64,000 nucleotides of DNA, taken from positions 229,484 to 293,483 of the forward strand of contig JBAXLJ010000001.1 of the NCBI GenBank assembly GCA_037134915.1, read 5' to 3'. The translations under genes and the position numbers were made by a program. A model generated the notes under the pieces. The model did no database searches, had not been told where the DNA came from, and saw nothing but the letters and a program-made list of their open reading frames with translations. The stretch is from Candidatus Falkowbacteria bacterium. Its GTDB lineage: Bacteria; Patescibacteriota; Patescibacteriia; Patescibacteriales; UBA12465. Below are positions 1-50,193 of the stretch, piece after piece. The first letter of the stretch is position 1, and each line of letters begins with the position of its first letter.

Positions 1-97
1 TCAGAACTTTAAAAAATAAGATTAAATTTGGTTAATTGCCAAGATAATCTATAAATAGGTTATTTTAGCAATTAATCAAATTGTTTAATTCTTAAAA
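1..97 (+). promoter_or_regulatory. Conserved structured cassette leader, copy L1 (truncated by window start)
   Basis: TCAGAACTTTAAAAAATAAG...; near-identical flanks to 776-883 and 16281-16389. Outer stem 27-39/68-80 (13 bp) and inner stem 44-50/57-63. Confidence 0.7.
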
Positions 98-106
98 TTG
101 TTAAAA

Positions 107-601
107 ATGGAAAGTAATTATTTAGTTTTGCCAATTGGCAAGATAAAAACCAAAAGTTTGGAGCCATGGTTTAAATGGTTAGGAAGACAGGGGTATGACG
201 CCTTTACCTCTTTTCAGGAAATAGTGGAATATTTTGAGCAACTAACTAAACCGTTGGGTCGCTCAGAAATAGTTTGTTATTCAGAGTCGAGTTATATTGA
301 ATCGCCAGATTTTCTGAAAGAAGAAGTACTCTTTTGTGTGAATTTCAATATTTGCAAATTAGATGACATGAACGCACATTTATTTGTGAAGTTTTTCATT
401 AATGGAACTGTTGAGATCATGGAAATTTATTTAGACGATTCAGTTTTACTTGGTCAAGTTCAAAATAATATAAAAAAACTTGATCATGTTATTGAGCAGC
501 ACCAAGAGACAAGCAAATTGTCGTGGAAAGAGTTCGTTAAACTGCACGGAGAAATTATGTCTGGTGTTTACAATGTAGAATTAGAAATGCCATCATTTTA
601 A
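107..601 (+). CDS. Hypothetical protein (cassette gene). ORF-track start 98 is TTG; first ATG is at 107.
   Basis: Intact ORF between leader L1 and repeat R1; no recognisable motif. Confidence 0.5.
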   Translation: MESNYLVLPIGKIKTKSLEPWFKWLGRQGYDAFTSFQEIVEYFEQLTKPLGRSEIVCYSESSYIESPDFLKEEVLFCVNFNICKLDDMNAHLFVKFFINGTVEIMEIYLDDSVLLGQVQNNIKKLDHVIEQHQETSKLSWKEFVKLHGEIMSGVYNVELEMPSF

Positions 602-705
602 TGCGATTTAGGTTAATGGTAATTTTTTAATTCTCTTTTTTCTTTGGACCTTAATTTATATAATTCAATATTATGTAAATTAGGGTCTTTTTTATTTTCT
701 TAAGA

Positions 706-775
706 CCATTCCAATTATGCCCCCCCTCTCCGCAGATTGACAGGAGTATACTAATATAGTATGCTTTTTTGTTGA
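706..775 (+). repeat. tRNA-Ser 3'-end-like cassette-boundary repeat R1
   Basis: ATTCCAATTATGCCCCCCCTCTCCGCAG + ATTGACA-N17-TATGCT / hairpin + TTTTTTGTTGA. Confidence 0.8.
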
Positions 776-883
776 TCAGAACTTTAAAAAATAGGATTAT
801 ATTTGGTTAATTGCCAAGTTCATCTGAAAAAGGTGTATTTAGTAATTAATCAAATTAGTAATAAACCTTAAAAATAAAAAGCC
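776..883 (+). promoter_or_regulatory. Conserved structured cassette leader, copy L2
   Basis: Outer stem 802-814/842-854 and inner stem 821-825/831-835; abuts R1 and ends at ATG 884. Confidence 0.7.
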
Positions 884-1453
884 ATGAGAATTATATCAAA
901 TGCCGAATTGCAGCAATTAGCTATGGTGATTAGTAAAAATGACATATCAGTTAGTCAGGTATTGGAGCTGATTAAAAAAAGAAATAAAGTGATTGACGTA
1001 ACTTCAATCGACATTGAATTAATTGTCGATTATAGCAAAAGTGTCGAGCAAGCTATTTCTGAAGGGAATTATGATATTAAAGAGAGTGATATTAACGCTA
1101 ATAATTTCCCCGTTGATCCGGAATTAATAGGAAAGACCGTAAAAGTAAAATCAAGATTATTTAATTTTGATGAACCACTCATTTCGCAGCGCGTTATCCG
1201 AGAGATGGACCAAGTCGATTACCGCCCCGCTAATTTAATGGAAATTCTTGCTTTTGGTGCAGCCCGTCCCGAGCTTCAAAGAGTAATTACAATTATAGCT
1301 TTTGGGTCACGTTGGGAAGACCATGATGGTTATTACTGTTTACCCGCTTTGCATGTTTGTAATAATAAGCGCTATCTAAATACAGCCCTTTTTGCCGAAA
1401 TGTTTACGTCTAGCTTATTCGCTCTTGGTATTCCCAAAGAATCGCCTAAGTAA
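884..1453 (+). CDS. Hypothetical protein (cassette gene)
   Basis: Intact 189-aa ORF directly after leader L2; no motif recognised. Confidence 0.5.
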   Translation: MRIISNAELQQLAMVISKNDISVSQVLELIKKRNKVIDVTSIDIELIVDYSKSVEQAISEGNYDIKESDINANNFPVDPELIGKTVKVKSRLFNFDEPLISQRVIREMDQVDYRPANLMEILAFGAARPELQRVITIIAFGSRWEDHDGYYCLPALHVCNNKRYLNTALFAEMFTSSLFALGIPKESPK

Positions 1454-1490
1454 TTAATTTTTTTTATTATTTTAATCTTTATATATAAAA

Positions 1491-2030
1491 ATGGAAACAA
1501 ATAGTGAAAAAAAATGGACGGAAAAAGATGGTATTATATATTTTTCTGTTACTTCCAATGGCGCTACTGGCGGCCAATGGACTAATGATTTAAAAATAAA
1601 AGGAGTTAGAGTAACCAATGACGCCAAAGAGATCCTGCATTCTGAAAATTTTAAGCCTACTAATGGTTATGTTTACAATATAGCTGTTATAAAGGGTGGA
1701 ATTTTCAGTGATAATTATCGCTTTATCGAAAGAATTCGCCAAGAAGCTCTACGTCACAAATTTTTTAATTCTGACGCAGAAGTAGCGTGTCTTATTAGAG
1801 AAAAATTTTTAAACGAAGACTTGGAGGCGATGGGGTTGCTTTGGATAATAGTAATGCATGAACCAATAAAAATTTCTTCTGATTATAATTTTCCTTCTTC
1901 TTGTCGCGGCAACCTTCTTTGTTCTTCTCATGGCGACCTTGGTCCATTATTGGAAACAGCCACTGATAAATCATTTATTAAGTGGAACAGTCTTCATGGA
2001 TTTGCTTTCTTGGTTTCGAAAACTTTATAA
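1491..2030 (+). CDS. Hypothetical protein (second gene of the same cassette)
   Basis: 179-aa ORF 37 nt after the previous stop with no repeat between them; followed by hairpin AGGGAG..CTCCCT + T-run and R2. Confidence 0.5.
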   Translation: METNSEKKWTEKDGIIYFSVTSNGATGGQWTNDLKIKGVRVTNDAKEILHSENFKPTNGYVYNIAVIKGGIFSDNYRFIERIRQEALRHKFFNSDAEVACLIREKFLNEDLEAMGLLWIIVMHEPIKISSDYNFPSSCRGNLLCSSHGDLGPLLETATDKSFIKWNSLHGFAFLVSKTL

Positions 2031-2119
2031 AAAAAATGACTCAGGGTTTATGATCTTAAAAATATTCGTGTAAAAGTATAGGGAGCTAGTAATAGTCTCC
2101 CTTTTATTTATATAAAACC

Positions 2120-2182
2120 GTTCCAACTTAAGTCCCGCTCTCCCCGCAGATTTAAATAGCCCAATTTTGTGGCTATTTTTTG
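2120..2182 (+). repeat. tRNA-Ser 3'-end-like cassette-boundary repeat R2
   Basis: GTTCCAACTTAAGTCCCGCTCTCCCCGCAG followed by hairpin ATAGCC..GGCTAT + T-run. Confidence 0.75.
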
Positions 2183-2223
2183 ATGGAGAGTTTATCGCTT
2201 TAGAGTGGCGTGCTATAATTTAA

Positions 2224-3496: not shown

Positions 3497-3688
3497 ATGA
3501 AAAATAACATCCGCGAACTCAGGACCAGTTTAAATTTAACTCAAGAAGAGTTGGCTCAGAAAGCCGGAGTCAGAAGAGAAACTATTGTCTTTCTGGAACA
3601 GGGTAAATATAACCCCTCCTTAAATTTAGCTTACGAAGTTTCTAAAGCCCTCAAGTCTTCAATTGATGAAGTATTTATTTTTGAATAA
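3497..3688 (+). CDS. XRE-family helix-turn-helix transcriptional regulator (63 aa)
   Basis: [39 protein letters not shown] is a classic Cro/CI HTH. Confidence 0.85.
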
Positions 3689-3747
3689 ACTCTCCCTTTA
3701 AAATTTATTAAAATAAAAACGCCCAGTTTTTAAACCGGGCGTGTTTT

Positions 3748-4434
3748 TTATTTTTGGGGAGCGATTAGACCTACGACTGAATGCTTATCCGGATAAATTT
3801 TAAATCCCGGGCGACTAATCCAGAGACCGCCGATAAATTCCGGCGCTTCTTGTGAAGCAGAACAAAAAAATACCAAGCGATAAGTCATCCGCCAATAAGA
3901 CGCTCCAATAGAAGCTAGCGGCATGTGAAATTTCTGTAAATAGGTGGTTTCTTCGTGGATGGACTTGATGATTGAACCTCTGGTGGCAAAGCCTTTATGA
4001 TTGCTGAAGATTCTCCATTCAGGATACCAAATTTTAGTTAAGTTTTTATCATTTTTTATACAAAACGGCTGACTGAAATCAAGTAATGTCTCGTAGTCGT
4101 TGGCACGGACTCTTCGCCATAGGCCAAGCTTTTCTCCAAGAGGGTAATCGATTTTAAAGTTAGAGTCTCTTGACAGTTCAATTTTATTTTTTAACCAGTG
4201 TTTTTCTGCACCCAAGAGTGAGCCAGCTAAATCAAAAATTATTTCCGCCGATTTTAAACCATTACCATAACTAATTAAATTTAACTGTCCATTAGGGGCG
4301 CAGTCAATTTCGGCCAAAAAATTTTGCTTTTTTTCTGGTTGCAGATTGATTAACAATTCCTTAGCCTGATTTTCATAAGACCTGTCCAACTCTAATATTT
4401 CATTAGAGTTTTTAAATAGATTTTTCTTTTCCAT
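3748..4434 (-). CDS. Hypothetical protein
   Basis: Intact 228-aa ORF; no motif recognised. Confidence 0.45.
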   Translation of the reverse strand: MEKKNLFKNSNEILELDRSYENQAKELLINLQPEKKQNFLAEIDCAPNGQLNLISYGNGLKSAEIIFDLAGSLLGAEKHWLKNKIELSRDSNFKIDYPLGEKLGLWRRVRANDYETLLDFSQPFCIKNDKNLTKIWYPEWRIFSNHKGFATRGSIIKSIHEETTYLQKFHMPLASIGASYWRMTYRLVFFCSASQEAPEFIGGLWISRPGFKIYPDKHSVVGLIAPQK

Positions 4435-4729
4435 GACACCTAATTTTTAAAATTAAACATTAAACGCTATTTGATGATAAAGTTGTTAAAAAACAAAAAA
4501 TCGGATAATATTCCGATTTGAATTGATTGATAATTTGCTGGCCGCCTTTTAGCGGGCTTCTTTTTTATCAACAAAACCAAACCGGATATTCATCCAGCAA
4601 TTCATATTATTATTTTGGTTGATTTTGTTCGATAATTTAAACATGGGATTATTTTAGCACATTTTAAGTAAAAGACAAGACCTTTTAATTATTATATCCC
4701 CCAAGAAACTTGTGTTATAATATAAAAAT

Positions 4730-5401
4730 ATGGAAAAAAATGTGAAAATTGAACCAGAATGGGCGGCGGTTTTAAGCGAAGTTTTTAAAACCGAACAGTT
4801 TAAACAGCTGGCTGATTTTGTTCGGGGTGAGTATTTAAGTAATAAAATTTTTCCCAAACCGGAACATGTTTTTACTGCCTTTTGGCTTACCCCATTTTCT
4901 AAAGTTAAGGTGGTTATTTTAGGTCAGGATCCTTATCATGGTGATGGTCAAGCTCACGGTTTATGTTTTTCTGTGCCTAGTGGCCTGCCGGTGCCGCCAT
5001 CTTTAAAAAATATTTATAAAGAAATTGAAAGTGATTTAGGCATAAATAAAGATTTTAAATCGGGTAATTTAGAAGCTTGGGCTAGTCAAGGAGTTTTTCT
5101 TTTAAATGCCATCTTAACAGTTGTTGCCCATAATCCCGCTTCCCATCAGAATAAGGGTTGGGAAAAATTTACCGATGCAGTTATTAAAACCATCTCGGAT
5201 AAAAAGGAGCACGTAGTTTTTATTTTATGGGGCAATTATGCTCGCAGTAAGAAAAATTTAATTGATGGCCATAAGCATTTGATTTTAGAAGCGCCGCACC
5301 CCTCGCCTTTATCGGCTTACTCAGGATTTTTTGGCTGCCGTCATTTTTCTAAAAGCAACGATTATTTAGCGGCTTGCGGCCAGGAAAAAATCGCTTGGTA
5401 G
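4730..5401 (+). CDS. ung: Uracil-DNA glycosylase, family 1
   Basis: GQDPYH water-activating loop and HPSPLS motif; length 223 aa. Confidence 0.93.
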   Translation: MEKNVKIEPEWAAVLSEVFKTEQFKQLADFVRGEYLSNKIFPKPEHVFTAFWLTPFSKVKVVILGQDPYHGDGQAHGLCFSVPSGLPVPPSLKNIYKEIESDLGINKDFKSGNLEAWASQGVFLLNAILTVVAHNPASHQNKGWEKFTDAVIKTISDKKEHVVFILWGNYARSKKNLIDGHKHLILEAPHPSPLSAYSGFFGCRHFSKSNDYLAACGQEKIAW

Positions 5402-5460
5402 AAATGCTTTATCTAAAGTAATTTGTTATACTGAAAGTAATAATAATTTATCTTTTGTTT

Positions 5461-6432
5461 ATGAACAAAAAAATAGAAGTTTCTCTTAGTCCACAAACCA
5501 TCAGAACGATTCTTTTAGTAGCGTTGGGAATTTTTTTTATCTGGAAATTATCGGACATTTTTATTCTACTAATTACCGCCATCATGGTGGCCTCCGCTTT
5601 AGATCCGGCAGTTAAATGGTTAAACAAAAAGCTATCTTTGACTTTATCGGCCGCTTTAGTAGTTATCGGCCTTATTCTGCCTTTAATTTATGTCGTGGGC
5701 GCGGTGATCCCTGATTTTATCAGCCAATTTCCGGCCATCTCTGAAAGAATCACTGGCACTTTAAGTGCTGCTAGTTTCTTACCGCCATTTTTGCGTCAAT
5801 TAGATTTTTCTCAATATTTTCAAAATGGCAGTTCTTATATTTTAGAATCAACTAAAATGATTGGTGATTTCTTTTTTCAAGCCATCACTTTTATTTTTTT
5901 AGTTTTTTATTTACTAATCGACGGCAAAGATTTGCACCGTTTAGTCGCTTTATCAATCTCTAGCGGTAAACGTAAACAAGTAGAAAAAATATCAGCCGAA
6001 CTCGGCCGAATTAGTGGTCAATATATTAGAGGCAACTTACTGATTTCCTTAATTTGTACTTTAGTAACTCTTGCCGGTTTACTACTTTTAAATATTCCTT
6101 ATGCTTTACCTCTGGCTATTTTTGCTGGAGTCTTGGATTTGTTACCGCTTATTGGGAGTACCATCGGCGCTATTCCGGCAGTCATTCTTGGTTTTACAAT
6201 TTCGCCACTGACCGGGTTGCTGACTATTGTTTTGTTTGGCACTTATCAGGCGATTGAAAACGATATCTTGGCGCCTAATATTTATAATAAGGTTTTAAAC
6301 TTATTACCATTCCTAAGTTTTATCGCCGTTATTGTCGGTTCAATTATTTTTGGTGTCGCCGGCGCTTTCTTGGCTTTGCCGATTGCCGCTGGTATCCCGA
6401 CAATTATTAAATACTTTGAAAAAAGTAAATAA
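5461..6432 (+). CDS. AI-2E/PerM (UPF0118) family transporter
   Basis: Topology of about 8 TM; C-terminal LDLLPLIGSTIGAIPA / FLALPIAA pattern typical of the family. ATG at 5461. Confidence 0.75.
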   Translation: MNKKIEVSLSPQTIRTILLVALGIFFIWKLSDIFILLITAIMVASALDPAVKWLNKKLSLTLSAALVVIGLILPLIYVVGAVIPDFISQFPAISERITGTLSAASFLPPFLRQLDFSQYFQNGSSYILESTKMIGDFFFQAITFIFLVFYLLIDGKDLHRLVALSISSGKRKQVEKISAELGRISGQYIRGNLLISLICTLVTLAGLLLLNIPYALPLAIFAGVLDLLPLIGSTIGAIPAVILGFTISPLTGLLTIVLFGTYQAIENDILAPNIYNKVLNLLPFLSFIAVIVGSIIFGVAGAFLALPIAAGIPTIIKYFEKSK

Positions 6433-6442
6433 TTAATTCTCT

Positions 6443-9400
6443 CTATTTATTATTTCCAGTCCTCTTTAATTTATTCCAGCCGTAGTGCCGGCCTTTTATG
6501 ATAGCTAAAATTGATTTATAGGTGATTACATACATAAACTGACGATAGAAAAATCTCTGAATCAGAATTAACCACATTAATTTTTTAGGTTTTTTCTCTA
6601 GGGTAAAAGCCAAGAGGGAGCCGCAGATATCCATGACGGTAAACATAAGATAACCGACGAAGATGGCACCGAAGTCACCACGAATAATTGATAGCAAAAA
6701 GACTAAATCGCCGATAGGGGATAAGACGGGGAAGATGATTTGGAAAAATAGCATATTAGGCAGAGCGACCCAGCCTAAGTTACCTTTAAAGAATAATTTA
6801 CGATTTTTATATAGACATTGATAAGTGCCATAACTCCAACGGAAGCGTTGTTTGGCTAGGCCACTAATAGTTTCCGGGGCTTCCGTTCGGCTTCTGGCTT
6901 CAGGGGCGTAAACAATCACGCCGCCGTTAGCTAGCAGTCTTAAAGTTAAGTCAGCGTCTTCAGTTAAAGTATCGGTGCCGTAACCGCCTACTGCTAAAAC
7001 TTTATCACGTCGCCAAGCGCCGGTCGCACCCGGAACTACACTAATGCAATTAAGTTCATCAAAAGCTCGGCGATCAAAATTTTGGGTGGTAATATATTCC
7101 AAGGCCTGGAAACCGGTGATTAAATTACGCACATTACCCACCTCTACATTACCGCAAACGGCATCAACTTTGGCATCGGCAAAAGGTTTAGTCAGTTCGT
7201 TGATGGTTTCTGGTAAAAGAATGGTATCACCATCAATTGTGATAATTAAATCATATTTTGCTTCCGTAAAACCTAAGTTTAAAGCTGATGATTTACCGCC
7301 ATTAGGTTTTTTAATTAATCTAATGCGCTCATCTTGCTTCATGAATTTTTCAACTTCAGCGCTAGTGTTGTCAGTTGAGCCATCGTCAATGACTAAAATC
7401 TCTAAGTTTTTCTTGGTACTTTTTTGAAGGGCGACTAAAGTGTAGGCAACGGTTTTTTCTTCGTTATAACAAGGAACGATAACGGTGACTGGTTCAGTAA
7501 AATCTTTTTCTTGACGCTTGCGGTAGTGCTTAGCCGATCTAATTACCATCGCACCTAGAAATAAGATCCGCAAGATGGCAATAACAGTTGTTAAAATAAA
7601 TAACCACGAAATAATTATCCAGCCCCAACGCAAACTGAAATTCCAAATAGAAGTTATTTCCACAAAAAATAATTCACCTCCAGAAAGTGGGGGGTTGATT
7701 TGGTCCCGACTTAAACCGGCAGCGGTATCAAAATTTACAAAAGTATAACCTTCAGCTTTTAATTTAGGAATTAGAATTTTTAGAGCAGCCACGGTTTGGG
7801 AGCGGTCTCCGCCGGCATCGTGCATTACAATGACGTGGTTTTGGGAGTCAGATACTTGATCTAAAACGTTACTGATAATTTTATCGACGCCTGGTTTTTG
7901 CCAATCTTCAGAGTCAATATTAGCACCGGCAATTATATAACCAAGCTTATTAACCGAAGAGATGGCTTTTAGCTGCTCGGGGGTACTTGGAGTTGAGTCG
8001 GTGTCGTAAGGCGGTCTAAAAAGAATGGTTCGTTTATTAGTTTCCGATTCAATTACTCTTTGGGTTTGGTTTAACTCTAAATCTAAACGACCGCGGGAGA
8101 TAGTGGAAATGTCGGGATGCAGATACGTGTGATTACCAAACATAAATCCGTCTTTAGCCATTTGACTAACCACATTAGGATTTCTTTGAGCCTGATCACC
8201 GACTAAGAAGAAGGTGGCTGGAATATTATTATCTTTTAAAACTTTGGTAATTTGCGGCGTCCAAATTTCATCAGGGCCATCATCAAAAGTTAAAATTATT
8301 TGTTTGTCAGGAAAAACTTGACCGACAGCGCCTAAATCGTAACCCGCGGGAATCTTATCGTAGAGAGCGTAATCAATACTGCCGTCGGAATCAGTGGTAA
8401 TTTGGAGGTGACCATTGGCTCGATCACGTTCTAATTTAAATAATTCACTTTGATTTTCAAAAGTAATGGAATTTAACTTGGGGGAATCGGTAAAACTTTG
8501 ACCAGTGGCCTGTTTGTTAAATACCTGCCAATAGGATTCATCTTCATTGCCTAAACGCCACAGGGCAACGCCGGCTACCTGACTTTTTTTGGCAATTAAA
8601 ACTTCATTCCAGGCTGTAGTCCCGTTTAAAAACCAAACTTGGTGTTCGTTGTCGCTGTCATCTTTGTAGCTAAAGTACATATTAAAACCGGAATCAGAAT
8701 TCATTTCTGGTTCGGCTCCCGCTTCACTGGCCAAAGACATGACTTCGTTAAATTTTAAAGATTCGGCTGACGTAGTGGTGCCAATAGTCCAGTCATAACC
8801 GTAAGCTCCTAGAGAAATAATTAGTTTACTTTTGGGTACTGAGTTAATGCCTTGATCAACCACATCTTTGAACCAGTCAGTACTGGCAATCGGCCCGGGG
8901 TCACCGCCAGGGTAGTGCTCGTCATAAGCCATGAGCACGACGTAATCAACTATTTGTCCGATATACTCAAAGTCGTAAGCCGGATCGTTAGCGGTCACAT
9001 CAACGGTTACAAGTTTATTATTTTTATGCAGGATTTCGGTTAGAGTTTTAAGAAATTCCAGATAAGCGTCTCTATCTTCAGGTTTTAAATCTTCTAAGTC
9101 GACATTAATGCCGGCCGCCTTTGACTTTATAACTAAGTCAGCTAAGGCTCCGGCTAAGCAAGAGCTAGTTTCGGAGTTGTGCAAAATAATGCTAGTTTCG
9201 GGACCATACCAGCGGCCTAAATAACCATTAGTAAATCGGGGAATAATCGCCGCCTTGCTAGATGAGCTGATAGCCTTGGTAATATTTGAATCTTCTTTTT
9301 CTAAAACGGAACAACTGGCACTATTTAAAAAATACCAATCAGGAAAAACAATATCCGTGTCGCTAGCGTGTCTTTCAAATGATTGCAGACTAGACGGATC

Positions 9401-9730
9401 GTCTTGAATTAAAAAAGCACTTGATAAGAAGTTAGTTGAACTGGCTAGATTTTGATTATTAATAACAGTCAGCGGAGTCGAAGTGGCCAAATTAGTCTTA
9501 GTTACCTTTTTTGTTTTTGGGGCTAATTTTTTTTCCTGAGCAATAATATTAGCTTTAATGTGTGAGGCTCTTTTGATATTATCTTGCCTTTCTTGAACAC
9601 TAGCTAGGGGCGGATTAACCATTAAACTGGCAATCATACCTCCTAAAAGGATGGCTAGGATGAGGGGAATGCCAATGAAGACCCATTTGGCTCTTTTCCA
9701 ACGTTTTTGTGAGAAATCTTCGAATATCAT
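6443..9730 (-). CDS. Triple-fusion exopolysaccharide enzyme: TM - GH18-like domain - NodB polysaccharide deacetylase - TM - family-2 processive glycosyltransferase (PgaC/IcaA/MatB-like)
   Basis: GINVDLEDL (GH18 DxxDxDxE-like); TFDDGP and HTYLHPD (NodB); VIVPCYNEE, DDGSTDNT, DGDT and QRFRWSYG (GT2 Q(R/Q)xRW). Confidence 0.85.
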   Translation of the reverse strand: MIFEDFSQKRWKRAKWVFIGIPLILAILLGGMIASLMVNPPLASVQERQDNIKRASHIKANIIAQEKKLAPKTKKVTKTNLATSTPLTVINNQNLASSTNFLSSAFLIQDDPSSLQSFERHASDTDIVFPDWYFLNSASCSVLEKEDSNITKAISSSSKAAIIPRFTNGYLGRWYGPETSIILHNSETSSCLAGALADLVIKSKAAGINVDLEDLKPEDRDAYLEFLKTLTEILHKNNKLVTVDVTANDPAYDFEYIGQIVDYVVLMAYDEHYPGGDPGPIASTDWFKDVVDQGINSVPKSKLIISLGAYGYDWTIGTTTSAESLKFNEVMSLASEAGAEPEMNSDSGFNMYFSYKDDSDNEHQVWFLNGTTAWNEVLIAKKSQVAGVALWRLGNEDESYWQVFNKQATGQSFTDSPKLNSITFENQSELFKLERDRANGHLQITTDSDGSIDYALYDKIPAGYDLGAVGQVFPDKQIILTFDDGPDEIWTPQITKVLKDNNIPATFFLVGDQAQRNPNVVSQMAKDGFMFGNHTYLHPDISTISRGRLDLELNQTQRVIESETNKRTILFRPPYDTDSTPSTPEQLKAISSVNKLGYIIAGANIDSEDWQKPGVDKIISNVLDQVSDSQNHVIVMHDAGGDRSQTVAALKILIPKLKAEGYTFVNFDTAAGLSRDQINPPLSGGELFFVEITSIWNFSLRWGWIIISWLFILTTVIAILRILFLGAMVIRSAKHYRKRQEKDFTEPVTVIVPCYNEEKTVAYTLVALQKSTKKNLEILVIDDGSTDNTSAEVEKFMKQDERIRLIKKPNGGKSSALNLGFTEAKYDLIITIDGDTILLPETINELTKPFADAKVDAVCGNVEVGNVRNLITGFQALEYITTQNFDRRAFDELNCISVVPGATGAWRRDKVLAVGGYGTDTLTEDADLTLRLLANGGVIVYAPEARSRTEAPETISGLAKQRFRWSYGTYQCLYKNRKLFFKGNLGWVALPNMLFFQIIFPVLSPIGDLVFLLSIIRGDFGAIFVGYLMFTVMDICGSLLAFTLEKKPKKLMWLILIQRFFYRQFMYVITYKSILAIIKGRHYGWNKLKRTGNNK

Positions 9731-13623: not shown

Positions 13624-13710
13624 GGAGAGGTGCCAGAGCGGTCGAATGGAACAGTCTTGAAAACTGTCGTACCTGAAAGGGTACCGAGGGTTCGAATCCC
13701 TCCCTCTCCG
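13624..13710 (+). tRNA. tRNA-Ser (anticodon UGA), CCA not encoded
   Basis: Acceptor GGAGAGG/CCTCTCC; anticodon stem ACAGT/ACTGT with loop CTTGAAA; long variable arm; T-arm GAGGG-TTCGAAT-CCCTC. Confidence 0.92.
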
Positions 13711-13721
13711 CAATCACATTG

Positions 13722-13746
13722 AACAAGGCTAAAACCTTGTTTTTTG
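13722..13746 (+). terminator. tRNA terminator hairpin
   Basis: ACAAGG-CTAAAA-CCTTGT followed by TTTTT. Confidence 0.75.
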
Positions 13747-13765
13747 GTGCCTTTTTTAAGTTTTT

Positions 13766-13806
13766 CAGTTCGAACCTGGCACAGGGAGTGCGGGACTGTT
13801 TTTGGT
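13766..13806 (+). repeat. Degenerate T-loop-containing repeat R3 (weakest copy)
   Basis: CAGTTCGAACCTGGCACAGGGAGTGCGGGACTG + TTTTT. GTTCGAA is shared with the other copies, but the rest is G-rich rather than C-rich. Confidence 0.4.
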
Positions 13807-13942
13807 AAAATGCTTATTTTTTAGCCATTTTAAGGTAAAATTCTCTGGTTCGAATACAAAAAATTTATTGATTCATATTATTTGTTTTATTTTGTTTGTG
13901 GTAAAATATATAAATCAAATTAATTTAAGTTTATTAAATTTT

Positions 13943-14284
13943 ATGCAAGAAATTACAATAAAAGAAGCACAAACAAGAGTAGATGATTGGATTAAAACAA
14001 TTGGCGTTCGTTATTTTTCAGAGTTAACTAATCTGGGTCAATTGACCGAGGAAGTTGGCGAGGTCGCCCGTATTATAACTCGAACATATGGAGATCAAAG
14101 TTTTAAAAAATCAGATGAAGGCCATAATCTAGGGGATGAATTAGCTGATGTTTTGTTTGTTGTTATCTGTCTTGCTAATCAAACAGGGGTTGATTTAACT
14201 GAAGCTCTGCAAAAAAATCTTGATAAAAAAACGAAACGAGATTCCGATAGGCATCAAAATAATGAAAAATTAAAAAATAACTAA
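13943..14284 (+). CDS. MazG-like nucleoside triphosphate pyrophosphohydrolase (cassette gene). ORF-track start 13802 is unlikely.
   Basis: EEVGEVARII ... GDELADVLFVVICLAN, the paired EExxE/ExxD helices of small all-alpha MazG/YpjD proteins. Confidence 0.72.
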   Translation: MQEITIKEAQTRVDDWIKTIGVRYFSELTNLGQLTEEVGEVARIITRTYGDQSFKKSDEGHNLGDELADVLFVVICLANQTGVDLTEALQKNLDKKTKRDSDRHQNNEKLKNN

Positions 14285-14328
14285 TACAGTGTAAAAATAG
14301 TGTTTAATTGGTATTTTCGCAAATTCCA

Positions 14329-14394
14329 GTTCGAACAAAGTCCCTCACTCCCCGCAGACAGGAAAAAGCAGCTTTAATTAGCTGTTTTTTTGTT
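14329..14394 (+). repeat. tRNA-Ser 3'-end-like cassette-boundary repeat R4
   Basis: GTTCGAACAAAGTCCCTCACTCCCCGCAG followed by hairpin AGCAGC..GCTGT + TTTTTTTGTT. Confidence 0.8.
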
Positions 14395-14414
14395 ATGTAT
14401 AAGCTTAAATATTG

Positions 14415-14445
14415 AGTTCCAAAGTGGTTCGAATTGACTTAGAGT
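14415..14445 (+). repeat. Extra tandem T-loop-like fragments (R4b)
   Basis: GTTCCAAAGTGGTTCGAATTGAC. GGTTCGAAT is identical to the tRNA T-loop region. Confidence 0.45.
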
Positions 14446-14591
14446 AGTAGGAATGGATATCGTTAAAAAGGTATTATTAAATTTAATATTAGGGAAAATT
14501 ATTTAGTTCTAACTTAAAACCTTGTTTATAAAAATATGCTAAATTCGGAGAAGTTTTAATACTTTGTAGCGGTATGATATAATATGTATAT

Positions 14592-15272
14592 ATGAAAAAA
14601 ATTATTATATTAGGTGCTAGTGATGGGCTCGGTAAGGCAATCGCTAGTTTATGCCTAAAAGAAAAAATAGAAGTGATTAATGTAAGTAGGACAGCTTGCG
14701 ACTTACCAGGCGTTGTTAATCTTACTTGCGATTTATCTATAGAAGAAGATATCAATAATACGAGTAATTTAATAAAAGAAAAGTATAATAATTTTGATGC
14801 TATTATCAATTGTGTTGCTATTGTAGCTATGGAGAAAATTAATGAAATTACATATTCTAAATTTGAAAGAGCATTTAAAATTAATACTATCGCTCCATTG
14901 TATTTATTATCTCTACTATTTGATAACATTGTAAAAAATGAAGCCGATATATTAAATATTGGCACGACAGCAGATTTAAAAGCTGGATTCAATGATCAAT
15001 TAGCATATACCTCAACTAAATATGGCCTAAGAGGCGGATCGTATAATATTGGATTAGAATTAGCAAAAACAAAAAGTAGAATGATATATGTTCACTGCGG
15101 TGGTATGAATACCAAAATGCACGAAAAGGATTATGGATTGAAAATAGATAATCCAGAAGAATGGATGAACCCACTCGATGTAGCTGATATAATTTTGTAT
15201 TTACTCAAATTGCCAAAACAAATAGAAATAACAGAAATTACTATTAGTCGTAAAAAAAGAAGATTGGGATAA
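14592..15272 (+). CDS. Short-chain dehydrogenase/reductase (SDR) family oxidoreductase (cassette gene)
   Basis: N-terminal ILGASDGLGKAIA (TGxxxGxG-type) and catalytic YTSTK (YxxxK). Confidence 0.8.
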   Translation: MKKIIILGASDGLGKAIASLCLKEKIEVINVSRTACDLPGVVNLTCDLSIEEDINNTSNLIKEKYNNFDAIINCVAIVAMEKINEITYSKFERAFKINTIAPLYLLSLLFDNIVKNEADILNIGTTADLKAGFNDQLAYTSTKYGLRGGSYNIGLELAKTKSRMIYVHCGGMNTKMHEKDYGLKIDNPEEWMNPLDVADIILYLLKLPKQIEITEITISRKKRRLG

Positions 15273-15388
15273 AATTTAGTTTTATAGCTTTATTATAAAA
15301 ACGTTTCAACTATCTGTCTTGCCTTCAAGCATTTTTAATAAAAACCAAACTACATATTTAGCTAATCATACAAATAATTTATCAAATT

Positions 15389-15456
15389 AGTTCGAATAGC
15401 GTCCCTAACACCCCGCCAATTGACAAAAGTATACCAAGATGGTATGCTTTTTTGTT
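15389..15456 (+). repeat. tRNA-Ser 3'-end-like cassette-boundary repeat R5
   Basis: GTTCGAATAGCGTCCCTAACACCCCGCC; TTGACA(15420-15425)-N17-TATGCT; hairpin AGTATACCA/TGGTATGCT; TTTTTTGTT. Confidence 0.85.
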
Positions 15457-15505
15457 ATTTTAATAATTAGTATAAAAACTATTTAATCCTTAAAATAAAC
15501 TAATA

Positions 15506-15760
15506 ATGAGTAAATTAAAAAAATGTCAGGATTGTGGCGCAGCTCCAGGTCAACCCCATAAAGATGGTTGCGATATCGAACGTTGTAGTGTTTGTGGAAA
15601 ACAACATATACAGTGTGGATGCGAGGGGCACGATAAAGCTTTTGCTAGATGGACTGGTTTTTGGCCTGGTTCTATTGAATCGGAAAATCTAGGCATAGAT
15701 TTAAACGAGTTTTACAGACAGGGTTTTCACAAAATATTTTTTGTAAAACCGGAAGTTTGA
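15506..15760 (+). CDS. Cys-rich small protein, probable zinc-binding (cassette gene)
   Basis: CQDCG..C..CSVCG..CGC pattern in 84 aa. Confidence 0.5.
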   Translation: MSKLKKCQDCGAAPGQPHKDGCDIERCSVCGKQHIQCGCEGHDKAFARWTGFWPGSIESENLGIDLNEFYRQGFHKIFFVKPEV

Positions 15761-15821
15761 AAAAACTATTAATTAGGGGGGGGGTGTTCAGTAATGAACA
15801 CCTTTTTTATTTGTTAAAACC

Positions 15822-15887
15822 GTTCTAACTACGTCCCACTCTTTCCGCACATTGACAAAAGTATACTAATGTGGTATACTTCTTGTT
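15822..15887 (+). repeat. tRNA-Ser 3'-end-like cassette-boundary repeat R6
   Basis: GTTCTAACTACGTCCCACTCTTTCCGCAC; ATTGACA-N17-TATACT; ..CTTGTT. Confidence 0.85.
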
Positions 15888-15927
15888 AAGAAAGATATTT
15901 AACATTAACATAAAAAAACCATAAGTC

Positions 15928-16131
15928 ATGATTCAAACAGTTCTTCTTTCGTTTTTGTATGGTGCGGTTGTATTTGGGGCCACTGCTTTATTCCTAGGAA
16001 AGAAAAAAGCTAGTAAATTACCTGGTGGTGCTATTTTAGCAGCCTTTATTTTAGCTCCATGGTGGGCTGCTTTAATTGGCGCTTTAGTAGGGCACTTTGG
16101 CGCTGCTTATTTAGTTAATAAATTTCTTTAA
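15928..16131 (+). CDS. Small 2-TM membrane protein (cassette gene)
   Basis: 67 aa with two Gly/Ala-rich hydrophobic helices. Confidence 0.45.
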   Translation: MIQTVLLSFLYGAVVFGATALFLGKKKASKLPGGAILAAFILAPWWAALIGALVGHFGAAYLVNKFL

Positions 16132-16209
16132 TTGAACCTTGGTTCATAAAAGGAGGTCTTAAAAATAGATCTCCTTTTTTCTTTTTAATTAACACTTTTA
16201 TATATCACT

Positions 16210-16280
16210 GTTCCAGTTACACCCCCCTCCCTCTCCGCTTATTGACAAAAGTATGCCAAGATGGTATGCTTTTTTGTTGA
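16210..16280 (+). repeat. tRNA-Ser 3'-end-like cassette-boundary repeat R7 (best match to the tRNA)
   Basis: GTTCCAGTTACACCCCCCTCCCTCTCCGCT (tRNA: ATCCCTCCCTCTCCGCA); ATTGACA-N17-TATGCT; TTTTTTGTTGA. Confidence 0.88.
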
Positions 16281-16389
16281 TCAGAACTTTAAAAAATAAG
16301 GTTAAATTTGGTTAATTGCCGAGTTCGTCTCAAATTTAGGCGGGTTTAGTAATTAATCAAATTAGTAATAACTTCAAAAATAAAATGTC
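16281..16389 (+). promoter_or_regulatory. Conserved structured cassette leader, copy L3
   Basis: Outer stem 16307-16319/16349-16361 and inner stem 16326-16330/16338-16342; ends at ATG 16390. Confidence 0.7.
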
Positions 16390-16821
16390 ATGAAAAAAAT
16401 GCTTGTTTTATTATTCTGTTTATTGATTTCTTTCGGTATTAAGGCTCAGACACCAGCCAAAGGGGAAATTCAAAAAATTTACAAAAAAGTTGTCACAAAA
16501 ATTTCATCTGAAGGCCGGGATACCGTAGAATTCAGGGTATTTCGTGTGGACACTTTTTCTGTAACCAATTTAGTTTACGAAAAAAAGCATGATTGTCCAT
16601 GTAGCAACAAGCAATGTCACGGCTCAAGGCTTACCCTATCTGCTAATTTTGGGAAAACAAAGATTTTTATTTTTCCTAATGGTGATTGTTTCTCTGAAAC
16701 AAATCATTCCAGTCCTGGTGTTGAAATTGTAGAAGTTAACCTAAAAGAAGAAAAAAAGTACGAGGCCAAATTTAAAAATGAGGCCAAAGTAGTTTTGTTA
16801 AACTATCTAAAATATTATTGA
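16390..16821 (+). CDS. Secreted hypothetical protein (cassette gene)
   Basis: N-terminal signal peptide MKKMLVLLFCLLISFGIKA|Q; no other motif. Confidence 0.5.
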   Translation: MKKMLVLLFCLLISFGIKAQTPAKGEIQKIYKKVVTKISSEGRDTVEFRVFRVDTFSVTNLVYEKKHDCPCSNKQCHGSRLTLSANFGKTKIFIFPNGDCFSETNHSSPGVEIVEVNLKEEKKYEAKFKNEAKVVLLNYLKYY

Positions 16822-16894
16822 TAGCCAAAATTTTGCAAGGAAGTCTAGCAATAGTCTTCCTTTTTTCTTTTTAAAGATCATTTTTATTACTAAC

Positions 16895-16965
16895 TGTTTT
16901 CCCAATATAGCGCCGATCTCCACGCCGATTGACAAAATTATACTAATATGTTATATTTTTTGTTG
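16895..16965 (+). repeat. tRNA-Ser 3'-end-like cassette-boundary repeat R8
   Basis: GTTTTCCCAATATAGCGCCGATCTCCACGCCG; ATTGACA-N17-TATATT; TTTTTGTT. Confidence 0.75.
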
Positions 16966-17029
16966 TCAAGAATATATTCTAGATTTTGCACTAAAATAAT
17001 AAAATTATTAATAAATTTAGTTTTAATAT

Positions 17030-17758
17030 ATGTTACCCCTAAGTAGGCAAAAAATTATTACAGAAGCTACAAATATTTTAGCTGATATTTTTAAGAAATA
17101 TCATGACCGTGGTATTGAAGCAATATATTTATGGGGGTCAGTTTTGTCTTCTAAGGATTTTAATCAAATATCTAGCGACATCGATTCCATTGCCATTGTA
17201 AAGGATAGTCTCGATTTTGCGGTAGAAAAAGAGTTAAATGACTATATTAAAATACAAAATAAAGGAATTGATCTGAAAATAAGATTTCTTTATATTAGTG
17301 AATTAAATGGCGGTCCGTCAAAAGGATTCACCACAAAGTATATTAATTATAAAATATTGTTATTTGATTTAAAATTTTGGCACCATGTTGTTGGTCAAAA
17401 GTATAGTGAAAAAGATTTCTCTTTAAAAAAAATAACAAATAATGAAGTTGCTATATTAAAACTTAAGGAAATTAGTAAATTGCACTTGCCGGCAAGGACT
17501 TATCCGTATACTGATTATAAATATTTTCTTAAAGCTTTGGCTAGATTTTGTTATTTCATCCAGGGGGCTAGTTGTACTTTCTCATATAACGATACTCTAA
17601 ATAGTGCCGATAAGGAATGTCAGTTTATTATGAAAAAAATAATAAAAATAAAAGAAAATGATTGGGATTTAAAAATGTTCACAAAAGAATTGCCTATATT
17701 TATAAACTTCTTAAACAAGAAAGAATTTGAACTCACATGTCGTAACGATGTTTTATGA
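17030..17758 (+). CDS. Minimal nucleotidyltransferase-fold protein (ANT/MNT-like) (cassette gene)
   Basis: hG[GS]x9-13DhD signature: LWGSVLSSKDFNQISSDIDSIAIV. Size of 242 aa is similar to aminoglycoside adenylyltransferases; substrate unknown. Confidence 0.55.
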   Translation: MLPLSRQKIITEATNILADIFKKYHDRGIEAIYLWGSVLSSKDFNQISSDIDSIAIVKDSLDFAVEKELNDYIKIQNKGIDLKIRFLYISELNGGPSKGFTTKYINYKILLFDLKFWHHVVGQKYSEKDFSLKKITNNEVAILKLKEISKLHLPARTYPYTDYKYFLKALARFCYFIQGASCTFSYNDTLNSADKECQFIMKKIIKIKENDWDLKMFTKELPIFINFLNKKEFELTCRNDVL

Positions 17759-17881
17759 AACACGTTATTTGTAACCATTAATTATATTTACCGCTTGTTT
17801 CATATTAAGATGATAAAATATCTGATGTTTCGTTTTTAAGATAAACGTGTCTCAACGCCATTTAGATAATTAAAATTTTTA

Positions 17882-17944
17882 TTTCAAATACATCCCGCCC
17901 TCCCCGAATTAAGACAAAAATAAGGTTAAGCCTTATTTTTTTTA
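17882..17944 (+). repeat. tRNA-Ser 3'-end-like cassette-boundary repeat R9 (last, degenerate)
   Basis: TTTCAAATACATCCCGCCCTCCCCG followed by hairpin ATAAGG..CCTTAT + T8. Confidence 0.65.
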
Positions 17945-18016
17945 TCAAATTGATAAAAAACAGAAGTTATTATATTATGATAAGCCACTCTTATTAATAA
18001 AATTATACTTAATTAT

Positions 18017-45397: not shown

Positions 45398-46603
45398 ATG
45401 CCAATTTTTCGCTATAAAGCTCACACCAAAAAAGGTAAGGTTAAATCCGGAATTGATATCGGCTTAAATGAAGCTGATTTAGTCGCTCGTTTTCGGCGCA
45501 AAGAGCTGGAAATTTTTTCTTTGGTGCCTGCTGAAGATGATTTAGAAACCAAAATAAAATTATTTGTCGAGCGTTCTAACACTAAAGATTTAGTAATTTT
45601 TTCGCGCCAATTCTCAGTGATGATTTCGGCTAATGTGCCGGTAGTGGAGTCCCTTCTTATTTTAATTGAGCAAACCGAAAATTTTTCACTCAAGAACATG
45701 ATTGCCGATATTGCATTTGAAGTCGATGCTGGTTCGCTGCTCTCCGATTCTTTTGAAAAAAGACCAGAGGTCTTTTCTAATTTTTTCGTCAACATTATTC
45801 GGTCTGGGGAAACTTCTGGTAAATTAGATGAAGTGCTTAATTATTTAGCCGATGAAATGGAGAAAAGTTATGATATGGCCTCGAAGGTTAAGGGGGCGAT
45901 GATTTATCCAATTTTTATCTTAGTCGGACTAATTGGCGTGGCGATTGTTTTGATGGTTTATGTAATTCCTAATTTGACTTCGGTGCTGACAGAGTCGGGC
46001 GCCGAATTACCCTTTGCCACTCGCGTGGTTATTGGCACTTCTAATTTTTTAACTAAATATTTATTATTGTTATTTTTGGCCTGTGTTGGTTTAGCTTTCT
46101 TGGCCCGTTTATATCTTAAGACTTATAACGGTCAGCGTAATTTAGATATTGTTAAGTTGCGGATGCCAATTTTTGGCACACTCTTTAAATATATTTATCT
46201 GATGCGTTTTACCCGTTCGCTCTCTACCTTACTTAAAGGTGGCGTGACTATTACTAAGAGTTTAGAGATTGTGGCTGATGTGGTCAGTAACGTTATTTAT
46301 AAGGAAATTATTTTAGCTACTTTAGAATCGATCAATGATGGTAATCCATTATCTACGGTTATGGAAAACGAACCAACAATTCCGAAAATGGTGCCACAAA
46401 TGTTAGCGGTTGGTGAACGTACCGGTAAGATTGATGTGGTTCTGGATAAAATTACCGAATTTTATAGTCGGGAAGCGGATAAAATGCTGGCTAATTTAAG
46501 TACCTTGATGGAGCCAGTGATTATGACCGTAATGGGTATCGGCGTCGGAATTATGGTGGCGGCGGTTATTATGCCGATGTATAACATGGCTAGCCAGTTC
46601 TAA
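45398..46603 (+). CDS. pilC: Type IV pilus platform protein PilC (GspF family), intact copy
   Basis: Two GspF-type repeats with 3 TM. ATG 45398 follows the pilB stop; ORF-track TTG 45374 is unlikely. Confidence 0.9.
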   Translation: MPIFRYKAHTKKGKVKSGIDIGLNEADLVARFRRKELEIFSLVPAEDDLETKIKLFVERSNTKDLVIFSRQFSVMISANVPVVESLLILIEQTENFSLKNMIADIAFEVDAGSLLSDSFEKRPEVFSNFFVNIIRSGETSGKLDEVLNYLADEMEKSYDMASKVKGAMIYPIFILVGLIGVAIVLMVYVIPNLTSVLTESGAELPFATRVVIGTSNFLTKYLLLLFLACVGLAFLARLYLKTYNGQRNLDIVKLRMPIFGTLFKYIYLMRFTRSLSTLLKGGVTITKSLEIVADVVSNVIYKEIILATLESINDGNPLSTVMENEPTIPKMVPQMLAVGERTGKIDVVLDKITEFYSREADKMLANLSTLMEPVIMTVMGIGVGIMVAAVIMPMYNMASQF

Positions 46604-46685
46604 CTCTTGTAGTGTTTATTGATTATGATATAATATTAAGGTATTATAATTTATATACTAAAATAAATAGTTTAAAAAAAATTTT

Positions 46686-47099: not shown

Positions 47100-47120
47100 A
47101 TATCTAGCTTTATTATAAGA

Positions 47121-50191: not shown

Positions 50192-50193
50192 TT

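Follow-up and report, generated by a model that had tools for sequence, protein, structure and literature searches.

Cis-mobilizable elements (CIMEs), known from the ICESt elements of Streptococcus, are non-autonomous, att-flanked units without recombination genes that share a tRNA-type site with an autonomous element in tandem arrangement and may be mobilized in trans. The promoter-early stem-loop (PeSL) cassettes of T4-type phages are repeated modules of a stem-loop terminator and a sigma-70-type promoter, which flank single open reading frames (ORFs) in a hyperplastic region. Here, an array of six single-gene units separated by repeats (R) that resemble the 3' end of a tRNA was analyzed. 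It lies directly downstream of the tRNA-Ser(UGA) gene, at positions 13624-17950 of a stretch of 64,000 nucleotides from Candidatus Falkowbacteria bacterium (contig JBAXLJ010000001.1), which is called the window throughout. The array is likely an integration hotspot, built by iterative accretion of cassettes at tRNA-Ser genes through a large serine recombinase (LSR) and partly fossilized.

In the tycheposons of Prochlorococcus, elements accrete in tandem at island tRNAs, tRNA-Ser(TGA) among them, and older units are pushed inward; degenerate remnants and partial tRNAs are scattered through the islands, the cargo is flexible, some elements are without full machinery, and 910 of 937 tycheposon-type elements use tyrosine recombinases (bioRxiv 10.1101/2020.12.28.424599). 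The present arrays resemble tycheposons in tandem accretion at a tRNA, as seen in the pair of loci L048 and L059 (L numbers denote the comparison loci) and in the arrays L043, L051, L055 and L059. Whereas tycheposons have a tyrosine recombinase and true partial tRNAs, an LSR is linked to the arrays described here and the repeats carry an element-borne tRNA mimic that exceeds the tRNA end by 5 nt. As flanking repeats, true copies of the tRNA 3' end occur only in repeat R7 of the window (14 nt) and in a few cases in L027 and L028. Unlike in tycheposons, each unit holds one gene, measures 0.4-1 kb and has a standard promoter, leader and terminator, and the host belongs to the candidate phyla radiation (CPR).

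CIMEs occur few per site and depend on tyrosine integrases, whereas here up to ~9 units form one array, an LSR is implicated and mobilization is predicted. The window cassettes share the attP-type arm (P arm) and the leader with LSR elements and lack the LSR, as do non-autonomous att-flanked units. PeSL cassettes belong to phage genomes, have neither a tRNA-like arm nor a site-specific recombinase and are shuffled by homologous recombination, unlike the units here. Integrons have in common with the array ordered, co-oriented single-gene cassettes, recombination-site repeats, a fixed primary site and the expectation that the newest unit lies beside this site, although the primary site here is a tRNA gene. 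Three hallmarks of integrons differ. The IntI-type profile PF00589 matched only the lambda Int controls among 66 window ORFs and 140 ORFs of related loci. The left half of the repeats is non-palindromic, unlike attC, and a palindrome is found only in their promoter half. Instead of one common Pc promoter, R5-R8 provide promoters of their own, and terminator-like hairpins follow the genes of the 84-aa and 67-aa proteins and, by sequence reading, that of the 143-aa protein. The LSR elements A118, phiC31 and Bxb1 agree with the present family in the domain set, an int gene at the element end beside att, a short core and a 5-bp shift, but differ from it in that the present family has tRNA targets, a reading frame that runs into the tRNA antisense strand, elements down to ~3 kb and arrays of recombinase-less units. 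In a 2020 survey of 2168 genomes, tRNA or tmRNA genes were used by 14 of 297 serine-integrase elements, which was stated to be previously unreported (PMC7192596).

No description of this system was found in the literature searched on the recombinase and its setting. An earlier note on this DNA, made from the sequence alone, had known of no described system with such an architecture. This was too strong, as tycheposons, with tandem accretion and scattered partial tRNAs, and CIMEs are precedents: tRNA-anchored tandem accretion, non-autonomous att-flanked units and promoter-terminator cassettes are already known. New are the LSR class at tRNA genes, the tRNA-mimic P arm with its +5 shift, and tiny, self-expressed single-gene units in long CPR arrays.

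Structure of the array

The tRNA-Ser(UGA) gene is the sole tRNA gene of the window (ARAGORN; Rfam RF00005, 57 bits), and six ORFs on the same strand, one per unit, follow it. The features are listed below; the span is the distance from GTTC to CCGC in the left half of a repeat.

13624-13711, + strand: tRNA-Ser(UGA), the anchor, with the proposed attB left half-site GGTTCGAATCCCTCCCTCTCCGC (ARAGORN, Rfam)
13721-13747, + strand: terminator hairpin directly 3' of the tRNA (-12.3 kcal/mol, z -2.9)
13766-13797, + strand: R1, a TTCGAAC-led fragment, like the start of a ~170-nt GC-rich element of L027, L028 and L062 (sequence reading; a putative remnant)
13847-13855, + strand: R2, exact 9-nt T-loop copy GGTTCGAAT, without acceptor part
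13943-14284, + strand: cassette gene 1, MazG-like NTP pyrophosphohydrolase, 113 aa (Pfam PF03819, 2.5e-15)
14327-14391, + strand: R4, P-arm mimic GTTCGAACAAAGTCCCTCACTCCCCGC, span 27 nt, then terminator-like hairpin at 14362-14391 (P-arm profile E = 4.8e-4; hairpin fold)
14426-14434, + strand: exact T-loop 9-mer fragment GGTTCGAAT
14592-15272, + strand: cassette gene 2, short-chain dehydrogenase, 226 aa, MEI6835439.1, with its own promoter-like site at 14556-14583 (Pfam PF00106 adh_short, 1.9e-24)
15389-15457, + strand: R5, P-arm mimic at 15389-15416 (span 27 nt), TTGACA-N17-TATGCT and hairpin (profile 2.8e-3; -14.6 kcal/mol, z -4.4)
15506-15760, + strand: cassette gene 3, Cys-rich 84-aa protein of no family; terminator at 15777-15808 (ORF call)
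15815-15886, + strand: R6, canonical P-arm mimic CCGTTCTAACTACGTCCCACTCTTTCCGC (span 27 nt), TTGACA-N17-TATACT and hairpin (profile 1.2e-6; 11 of 12 promoter positions)
15928-16131, + strand: cassette gene 4, 67-aa hydrophobic protein; terminator at 16148-16178 (ORF call)
16204-16279, + strand: R7, degenerate P arm (span 29 nt) with the exact 14-nt tRNA-end copy CCCTCCCTCTCCGC, TTGACA-N17-TATGCT and hairpin (P-arm profile not significant)
16278-16389, + strand: leader in the 5' untranslated region (5'-UTR) with a 21-bp hairpin (nhmmer, RNAalifold)
16390-16821, + strand: cassette gene 5, 143 aa, with a hydrophobic N-terminus resembling a signal peptide by sequence reading only; terminator-like hairpin at ~16826-16866 (ORF call; repeat family D5)
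16896-16966, + strand: R8, decayed left half, TTGACA-N17-TATATT (11 of 12 promoter positions) and weak hairpin (-5.3 kcal/mol, z -0.7)
17030-17758, + strand: cassette gene 6, putative nucleotidyltransferase, 242 aa, MEI6835442.1 (Pfam Polbeta 5e-4, below cut-off)
17884-17943, + strand: R9, degenerate C-rich core CCCGCCCTCCCCGA and terminator hairpin; it closes the array distally, and the PduL gene follows closely at 18017 (-9 kcal/mol, z -3.8; P-arm score not significant)

The repeat search returned a 76-nt family with four copies at 15377, 15809, 16199 and 16886 (R5-R8), which are 63-71% identical, and a 41-nt family that joins R4, R5 and R6. Six copies of a C-rich 14-mer lie on the same strand, the tRNA end among them. 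The motif GTTCGAA occurs nine times in 64 kb, which is chance level, yet eight of the nine copies fall within 13690-15396, and all three exact copies of GGTTCGAAT in the window fall in 13689-14434. The earlier note had described tRNA-Ser(UGA) followed by six same-strand single-gene units with tRNA-3'-like repeats, which ARAGORN, Rfam and the ORF and repeat searches bear out. Its repeat series R3-R9 is complete for R5-R8 only: R4 and R9 share just the left half and have a different hairpin, and the stretch from the tRNA to the MazG gene holds only fragments (the 9-mer at 13847 and the 30-nt piece at 13766-13797; a further 9-mer lies at 14426). Units resembling R9 are present in L043, L044, L045 and L051. 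The nucleotidyltransferase assignment of gene 6 likewise stands only as a weak match, as listed.

The promoter motif TTGACA-N17-TATNNT that had been noticed in R5-R8 coincides with the top + strand promoter-like sites of the region, TTGACA-N17-TAT(A/G)(C/T)T with TG upstream. The hairpins of R5, R6 and R7 are strong as described (-14 to -15 kcal/mol, z ~-4) and that of R8 is weaker, and the region contains 8 terminator-like sites against 1.8 +/- 1.4 expected. The common tail of two gene-proximal terminators was recovered as the CCTTTTTTCTTTTTAA tails of repeat family D5. The G+C content of the array is 0.30-0.31, compared with 0.36-0.42 in most of the window, and thus marks the region as an island; it is also low (0.33-0.36) at 1-6 kb, where a second array is located. 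Nothing decisive was obtained when nine cassette proteins were scanned with PADLOC and PHROGs. Rfam, applied to the whole window at gathering thresholds and to the region at E <= 1, matched only the tRNA and left the repeats, the leader and the GC-rich element unmatched. In Pfam recombinase scans that were spiked with lambda Int and Mu Gin as controls, PF00589 and PF00239 matched only the six spiked controls, and no tyrosine or serine recombinase was found among the 66 window ORFs, in agreement with the earlier reading.

The statistical weight of the repeats is unequal. A left-half profile made from other genomes only scored R6 (15815-15849) at 1.2e-6, a copy at 2113 in the second array at 1.5e-5, R4 (14327-14357) at 4.8e-4 and R5 at 2.8e-3, and only one of 20 block-shuffled windows reached 8 bits with it. 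These four copies are significant, R7 and R9 were not significant on their own, and R8 had no match. Full R units scored E = 1e-13 to 1e-19 with the unit profile, and zero matches of the unit pattern were expected in shuffles. With the unit and P-arm profiles, no R copies were found elsewhere in the 64 kb or on the minus strand, and the window copies are confined to two arrays.

R1 was dropped as a candidate 3' end of another tRNA; its TTCGAAC start also opens the GC-rich element in L027, L028 and L062. This element comprises ~170 nt in AT-rich DNA (L027 4340-4528; L028 5690-5536, minus strand; L062 oriented 3560-3715; window remnant 13766-13797) and lies directly after the tRNA terminator in several genomes. 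It opens with the inverted T-loop piece GGGATTCGAAC and closes with 16-17 nt that exactly match the 3' end of the local tRNA-Ser. Its fold was no better than that of shuffled sequence (z -1.6).

The left half of the repeats and its 5-nt offset from the tRNA

Across genomes, the non-tRNA copies follow the consensus C(C/T)GTTCCAACTACGTCCCACTCTCCCCGCAGA. All 9 distinct true tRNA-Ser sequences have a span of 22 nt from GTTC to CCGC, whereas 25 of the 32 distinct non-tRNA copies, R4, R5 and R6 of the window among them, have one of 27 nt. The C-rich block proximal to the core (..CTCYCCGC) is in register with the tRNA, and the distal GTTCNAA lies 5 bp further out. An element at tRNA-Val has the same +5 offset in other bases (26 nt vs 21 nt). 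Compared with attP, the attB site of serine integrases has its zinc-ribbon motif 5 bp nearer to the center, whereas the site of the recombinase domain is unchanged (PMC3783163). The left half-site follows this 5-bp rule, by which the left half of R corresponds to a P arm, and the tRNA to a B arm; no matching symmetry was seen on the right side.

One consensus with a constant insertion of 5 nt is not what random decay of displaced tRNA ends would give. The left half of R is an element-borne tRNA mimic and not a simple duplication of the tRNA end. The earlier note had read the repeats as partial duplications of the tRNA 3' end. That reading is replaced by a mimic that is 5 nt longer, conserved and situated at the far end of LSR elements.

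The right half of R is palindromic, and the left half, the tRNA mimic, is non-palindromic. All cassette left ends start with AGATT(G/T)NNAA, which resembles the LSR-side arm AGATTGTCAATATC; this common start hints at a shared right half-site.

Large serine recombinases at tRNA genes

No tyrosine integrase was found among 140 ORFs of at least 150 aa from 29 R-bearing loci in a spiked scan. Full-length LSRs were found in 2 of these 29 loci. They contain the Resolvase, Recombinase and Zn_ribbon_recom domains and belong to a large family, mainly of Patescibacteria. In related Patescibacteria, the LSR gene is convergent with a tRNA gene and overlaps its 3' end:

L073, tRNA-Ser(gga): 67-nt overlap, 9482-9548
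L077/L078, tRNA-Ser(gct): 49-nt overlap, L077 9479-9527
L062, tRNA-Ser(tga): LSR gene abuts the tRNA, which is cut by the locus edge
L076, tRNA-Val: 64-nt overlap, 9476-9539
L080, tRNA-Gln: 61-nt overlap, 9479-9539

The C-termini of the LSRs, ..L/RRGRDSNPRY, are the antisense reading of the tRNA-Ser end. L062 at tRNA-Ser(tga) and L073 at tRNA-Ser(gga) hold the same element, with LSRs that are 92% identical. Their left junctions are alike (CTCTCCGCAG/TTTGTCAATATC, slash at the junction), as are their right ends (GCGTTCCAATATAATACCAAGCTCTCCGC/), beyond which the host DNA is unrelated. The attL and attR sites of both elements have the short common core CTCTCCGC. Because the same ends are joined to different host sequences, the crossover can be placed in or close to CTCTCCGC, and the tRNA-like arm is part of the element. 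In L077, the element of 9 kb, with LSR, Rep and TraG-like genes, ends in CCGTTCCCAGTGCGTCCCACCCTCTCCGC, which is the canonical R type. LSR elements also carry a cargo module of the window type, consisting of promoter, the same leader, one gene, terminator and P arm, and the smallest of them (~3 kb) contain the LSR and one cargo gene.

The LSR frames of L073, L076, L077 and L080 were seen to cross the recombination junction and to stop inside the tRNA antisense strand. The last 13-22 residues of the LSR must therefore differ between the integrated and the excised state, and this exchange of the C-terminus could act as a built-in switch.

The earlier note had also proposed that the recombinase is located outside the window, which is supported by the LSRs of the relatives and by a member of the family on the source contig itself (314,016 bp). 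This LSR, MEI6835414.1 (P0121), stands eight protein accessions before MEI6835422, the protein of the gene at 884; the window proteins run from MEI6835422 to MEI6835474. The order of accessions places it beside the second array, about seven genes left of window position 1. Its identity is 77% with the tRNA-Ser LSRs of L062 and L073, 58% with the tRNA-Val LSR and 50% with the tRNA-Gln LSR.

Other recombinases were observed near tRNA sequences. A hairpin-type unit as the left end of the LSR element of L013 was dropped from consideration; the LSR of L013 belongs to a second family and has no clear R junction. A gene of this second family overlaps tRNA-Glu(ttc) by 39 nt in L083, and in L081 its C-terminal coding region carries the antisense 3' half of tRNA-Glu with no full tRNA. 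In L079 (1700-1930, minus strand), an LSR gene abuts a sequence like a tRNA 5' half with a His-like GTG anticodon loop; it is interrupted by a structured insert resembling a group I intron, and ARAGORN calls no tRNA there. In L074 (9701-14499), an element with a tyrosine integrase and a rolling-circle Rep lies between tRNA-Ser(gga) and an older LSR element and has left a displaced copy of AAATCCCTCCCTCTCCGCAG. In this arrangement, two recombinase classes compete for the same tRNA.

Arrays in other genomes and their turnover

Loci were collected with the 30-mer of the hairpin (one genome per species) and with the core plus TTGACA (metagenome collection). About 20 true loci with R units were obtained, all from Patescibacteria or unclassified metagenome-assembled genomes (MAGs). 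In nearly all of them, a tRNA-Ser gene with anticodon UGA, GGA, GCU or CGA lies on the same strand 0-6 kb upstream, and in nine loci a true tRNA-Ser is directly followed by the TTGACA hairpin. The R profile detected multi-copy arrays, on one strand only, in L043, L045, L051, L055 and L059; that of L055 has ~9 copies within 7 kb. The repeats may thus be regarded as recombination-site sequences tied to tRNA-Ser, in an array such as repeated insertion at a tRNA 3' end is expected to produce, as the earlier note had held. Its check on repeat placement came out in its favor, since in ~20 loci the R copies are confined to the tRNA strand and to the downstream side of tRNA-Ser, the second window array being without a tRNA inside the window; so did its check on cassette content, which differs among relatives. 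The placement speaks against a generic dispersed repeat, the main refuting condition of that note.

Matches of the 30-mer in Clostridia, Sulfurimonas and "Gammaproteobacteria" MAGs were set aside as promoter or operator look-alikes in which the tRNA-like half is missing. In many Clostridia MAGs (L003-L006, L010, L011, L014-L016, L020 and L022-L025), the 30-mer TTGACAAAAGTATAC..GTATACTT occupies promoter-like positions, with extra half-site copies downstream and no relation to tRNAs; it looks like a palindromic operator over a promoter. In viral contigs, 0 matches were obtained with either the hairpin 30-mer or the P-arm-plus-junction pattern. The attL-type junction pattern had 8 chance matches there, inside coding DNA and without a tRNA, and the LSR protein found only serine integrases that were 25-26% identical.

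Turnover of the arrays was apparent from loci with common flanks. L048 and L059 share a flank with tRNA-Arg and tRNA-Ser(gct) at 83% identity. In L048, a hairpin-plus-gene module abuts tRNA-Ser(gct); in L059, the same module is found 5.8 kb further on, with a P arm before it and several cassettes in between. The two loci form a pair of an empty and an occupied site. Among the tRNA-Ser(gga) loci L018, L033, L041, L047, L049, L056, L073 and L074, a DsbA-like gene lies just upstream in 8 of 8; where more of the flank is known, GatA was found in five, GatC in four and LigA in three. The same eight loci have zero downstream genes in common, and sporadic relatives of these genes occur in arrays behind other tRNA-Ser genes. 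The cassette of the Cys-rich 84-aa protein recurs in L055 with 94% protein and 91% DNA identity from the repeat core to the next TTGACA, between unrelated neighbors.

An array of 3.8 kb was observed at 99.97% identity in L062 (oriented 3540-7319, behind tRNA-Ser(tga) and the LSR element) and in L042 (8300-12078, behind tRNA-Ser(gct), in contigs from sister samples). It was either moved or duplicated very recently between tRNA-Ser loci, or the assembly is chimeric at the repeated GC-rich element. The window itself includes a direct duplication of 5.5 kb (45796-51320 and 58477-64000; 99.93% identical, 12,681 bp apart) that reaches the window end, with a PilB gene (43624-45384) and pilin-type ORFs in or near the duplicated part. 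It may be a real recent event or an assembly artefact.

The second array and a conserved leader

R-type repeats are not restricted to the tRNA-Ser locus of the window. A second same-strand array occupies window 1-2200, with no tRNA nearby inside the window:

1-2182, + strand: second array, cut by the window start (profile and repeat searches)
1-106, + strand: leader
107-601, + strand: gene of a 164-aa protein
700-776, + strand: R unit
773-883, + strand: leader
884-1453, + strand: gene of a 189-aa protein
1491-2030, + strand: gene of a 179-aa protein
2081-2106, + strand: terminator
2113-2149, + strand: P arm (span 28 nt, profile 1.5e-5)
2154-2181, + strand: hairpin, then a NUDIX gene fragment

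After the P arm at 2113-2149 and a TGnTATAAT promoter, only a NUDIX fragment of 48 aa was called (2347-2493). It is probably a decayed cassette gene, because full NUDIX genes follow the same unit elsewhere.

Window 720-887 is 85% identical to 16224-16393, and both contain a leader of ~110 nt. This 5'-UTR leader has three window copies (1-106, 773-883 and 16278-16389), is situated between the cassette promoter and the start codon, and precedes otherwise unrelated small genes. It was also found in L007, L018, L027, L028, L035, L038, L041, L043, L044, L046, L049, L051, L056, L057, L062, L073 and L076. The consensus of 18 aligned copies (RNAalifold) forms a 21-bp hairpin, TTTGGTTAATTACC..CGTCT-loop-AGGCG..GGTAATTAATCAAA, in which compensatory changes were seen at four pairs and the G.U wobbles are compatible with the + strand alone. 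No match to the leader was found in Rfam. It is a candidate for a new cis-regulatory RNA.

Proposed mechanism and alternative explanations

In the accretion mechanism considered likely above, the LSR family would use the 3' end of a tRNA gene as attB, and the left half of R would be the P arm of attP, mimicking the T-loop and the acceptor 3' strand of the tRNA. The right half of R (AGATTGACAAAAGTATACC..GGTATACTTTTTTGTT) would be the left end of the next cassette and combine a terminator-like stem-loop with a near-consensus extended -10 promoter. A cassette would comprise a promoter, an optional leader, one ORF, a terminator and the P arm. Each insertion at the tRNA 3' end would push older units downstream, giving the order tRNA, cassette, P arm, cassette, P arm, up to a last P arm and host DNA. 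This LSR family would have made the array of the window. The cassettes without LSR may be former LSR elements that lost the enzyme gene after each insertion, or they may have been mobilized in trans, with the junction of P arm and left end serving as attP and the LSR supplied from elsewhere, perhaps after homologous excision between the 70-200-bp repeats. Independent, integron-like mobility of the recombinase-less cassettes is a supposition. Several sites in the window are probably fossils; R7-R9 and the tRNA-proximal fragments would be inactive ones.

Several observations weigh against this mechanism. Serine integrases normally recombine attP with attB only, so repeated insertion needs the tRNA plus a cassette left end to work as attB, and we know of no serine integrase that inserts next to an attL-like site. 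Neither the array nor the window contains a recombinase, and MEI6835414.1 ends in ..DIDNLRAN at its stop codon and is thus not currently fused to an intact tRNA-Ser. The second LSR family, which is near the array of L013 and ~30% identical to the first, is not linked to R sites. With the left-half profile, R7 and R9 are not significant alone and R8 has no match. The spacer from CCGC to TTGACA varies by 1-3 nt among genomes and reads CA, AC, TT, CG and AG within the window, which does not fit a rigid right half-site or indicates decayed sites. The tRNA-proximal part is the most degenerate part of the window array, and growth with the newest unit next to the tRNA would predict the opposite. With 28-59% protein identity in the flanking gene, the genomes compared are too distant to give evidence of polymorphism at strain level, and no circular junction or free attP was found in viral contigs.

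A more far-reaching version supposes a working, integron-like capture system of CPR bacteria that is run by the LSR, with the tRNA-Ser genes (four per genome) as primary sites. Each unit would be independently mobile, the junction of P arm and left end would be a functional attP, a nearby LSR would move cassettes in trans among tRNA-Ser loci and between cells, and the newest cassette would stand beside the tRNA. We regard this version as possible but doubtful.

An explanation by portable promoter-terminator modules, comparable to PeSL cassettes, in which regulatory units are shuffled by homologous recombination only and the likeness to tRNA is accidental, is unlikely. It does account for the combination of a terminator-like hairpin and a near-consensus promoter in each unit, for the end of the homology block of the 84-aa protein cassette inside repeats, and for the same 30-mer as a promoter-like site in unrelated Clostridia MAGs; direct repeats of 70-200 bp (hairpin plus leader), such as 720-887 and 16224-16393, are also good RecA-type substrates. 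It leaves unexplained, however, the exclusive position downstream of tRNA-Ser in a single orientation, the +5 geometry and the fact that the left half is identical to the ends of LSR elements. Homologous exchange may contribute to excision and shuffling.

Less probable still are footprints of tyrosine integrases, by which repeated integration of phages or islands into tRNA-Ser and subsequent decay would have left displaced tRNA 3' ends between surviving genes. Such an origin is quite improbable for the array, since neither the window nor the set of 140 ORFs from R-bearing loci yielded a tyrosine integrase, and the only ones seen are in unrelated elements of L074 and L081. The typical R is, moreover, 5 nt longer than the tRNA end and follows one consensus in many genomes, unlike random decay, and this arm was mapped as the right end of LSR elements. 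Traces of this kind exist nevertheless: the integrase-plus-Rep element of L074 between tRNA-Ser(gga) and its displaced AAATCCCTCCCTCTCCGCAG copy, the exact 16-17-nt tRNA-end copies in L027 and L028, the exact 14-nt copy in R7 and the exact GGTTCGAAT fragments near the tRNA, which could be tyrosine-integrase scars.

A vertically inherited gene cluster with intergenic regions homogenized by tandem duplication and without any mobility is very improbable. The units are all co-oriented and adjacent, and R5-R8 are most alike in their right half, as such a history would have it; against it stand the low G+C content that marks an island, the lack of sequence relationship between adjacent cassettes, the occurrence of the same units with different genes behind four different tRNA-Ser genes in many genomes, and the empty and occupied sites of L048 and L059. 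A generic dispersed repeat (repetitive extragenic palindrome or miniature inverted-repeat transposable element) or chance likeness in AT-rich DNA, to which the short degenerate copies R7-R9 might individually be ascribed, is hardly credible in view of the E values of the full units, the zero expected shuffle matches and the confinement to one strand of two arrays, and stands refuted for R4-R6 and for both copies of the array at window 1-2200.

Implications for CPR bacteria

To our knowledge, serine integrases have been thought to avoid tRNA genes. For a large LSR family of Patescibacteria, the normal targets appear to be tRNA-Ser, tRNA-Val and tRNA-Gln. The att sites of this family can be read from genome comparison, and the exact 5-bp shift of the mimic provides a natural illustration of the model of attP/attB discrimination. 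From a practical point of view, small enzymes, short predictable sites and universally conserved targets are attractive for genome engineering.

CPR genomes are, as far as we know, reduced and host-dependent, with few recognized routes of gene gain. If the proposed mechanism is true, arrays of one-gene, self-expressed cassettes behind every tRNA-Ser would represent a compact reservoir of flexible genes.

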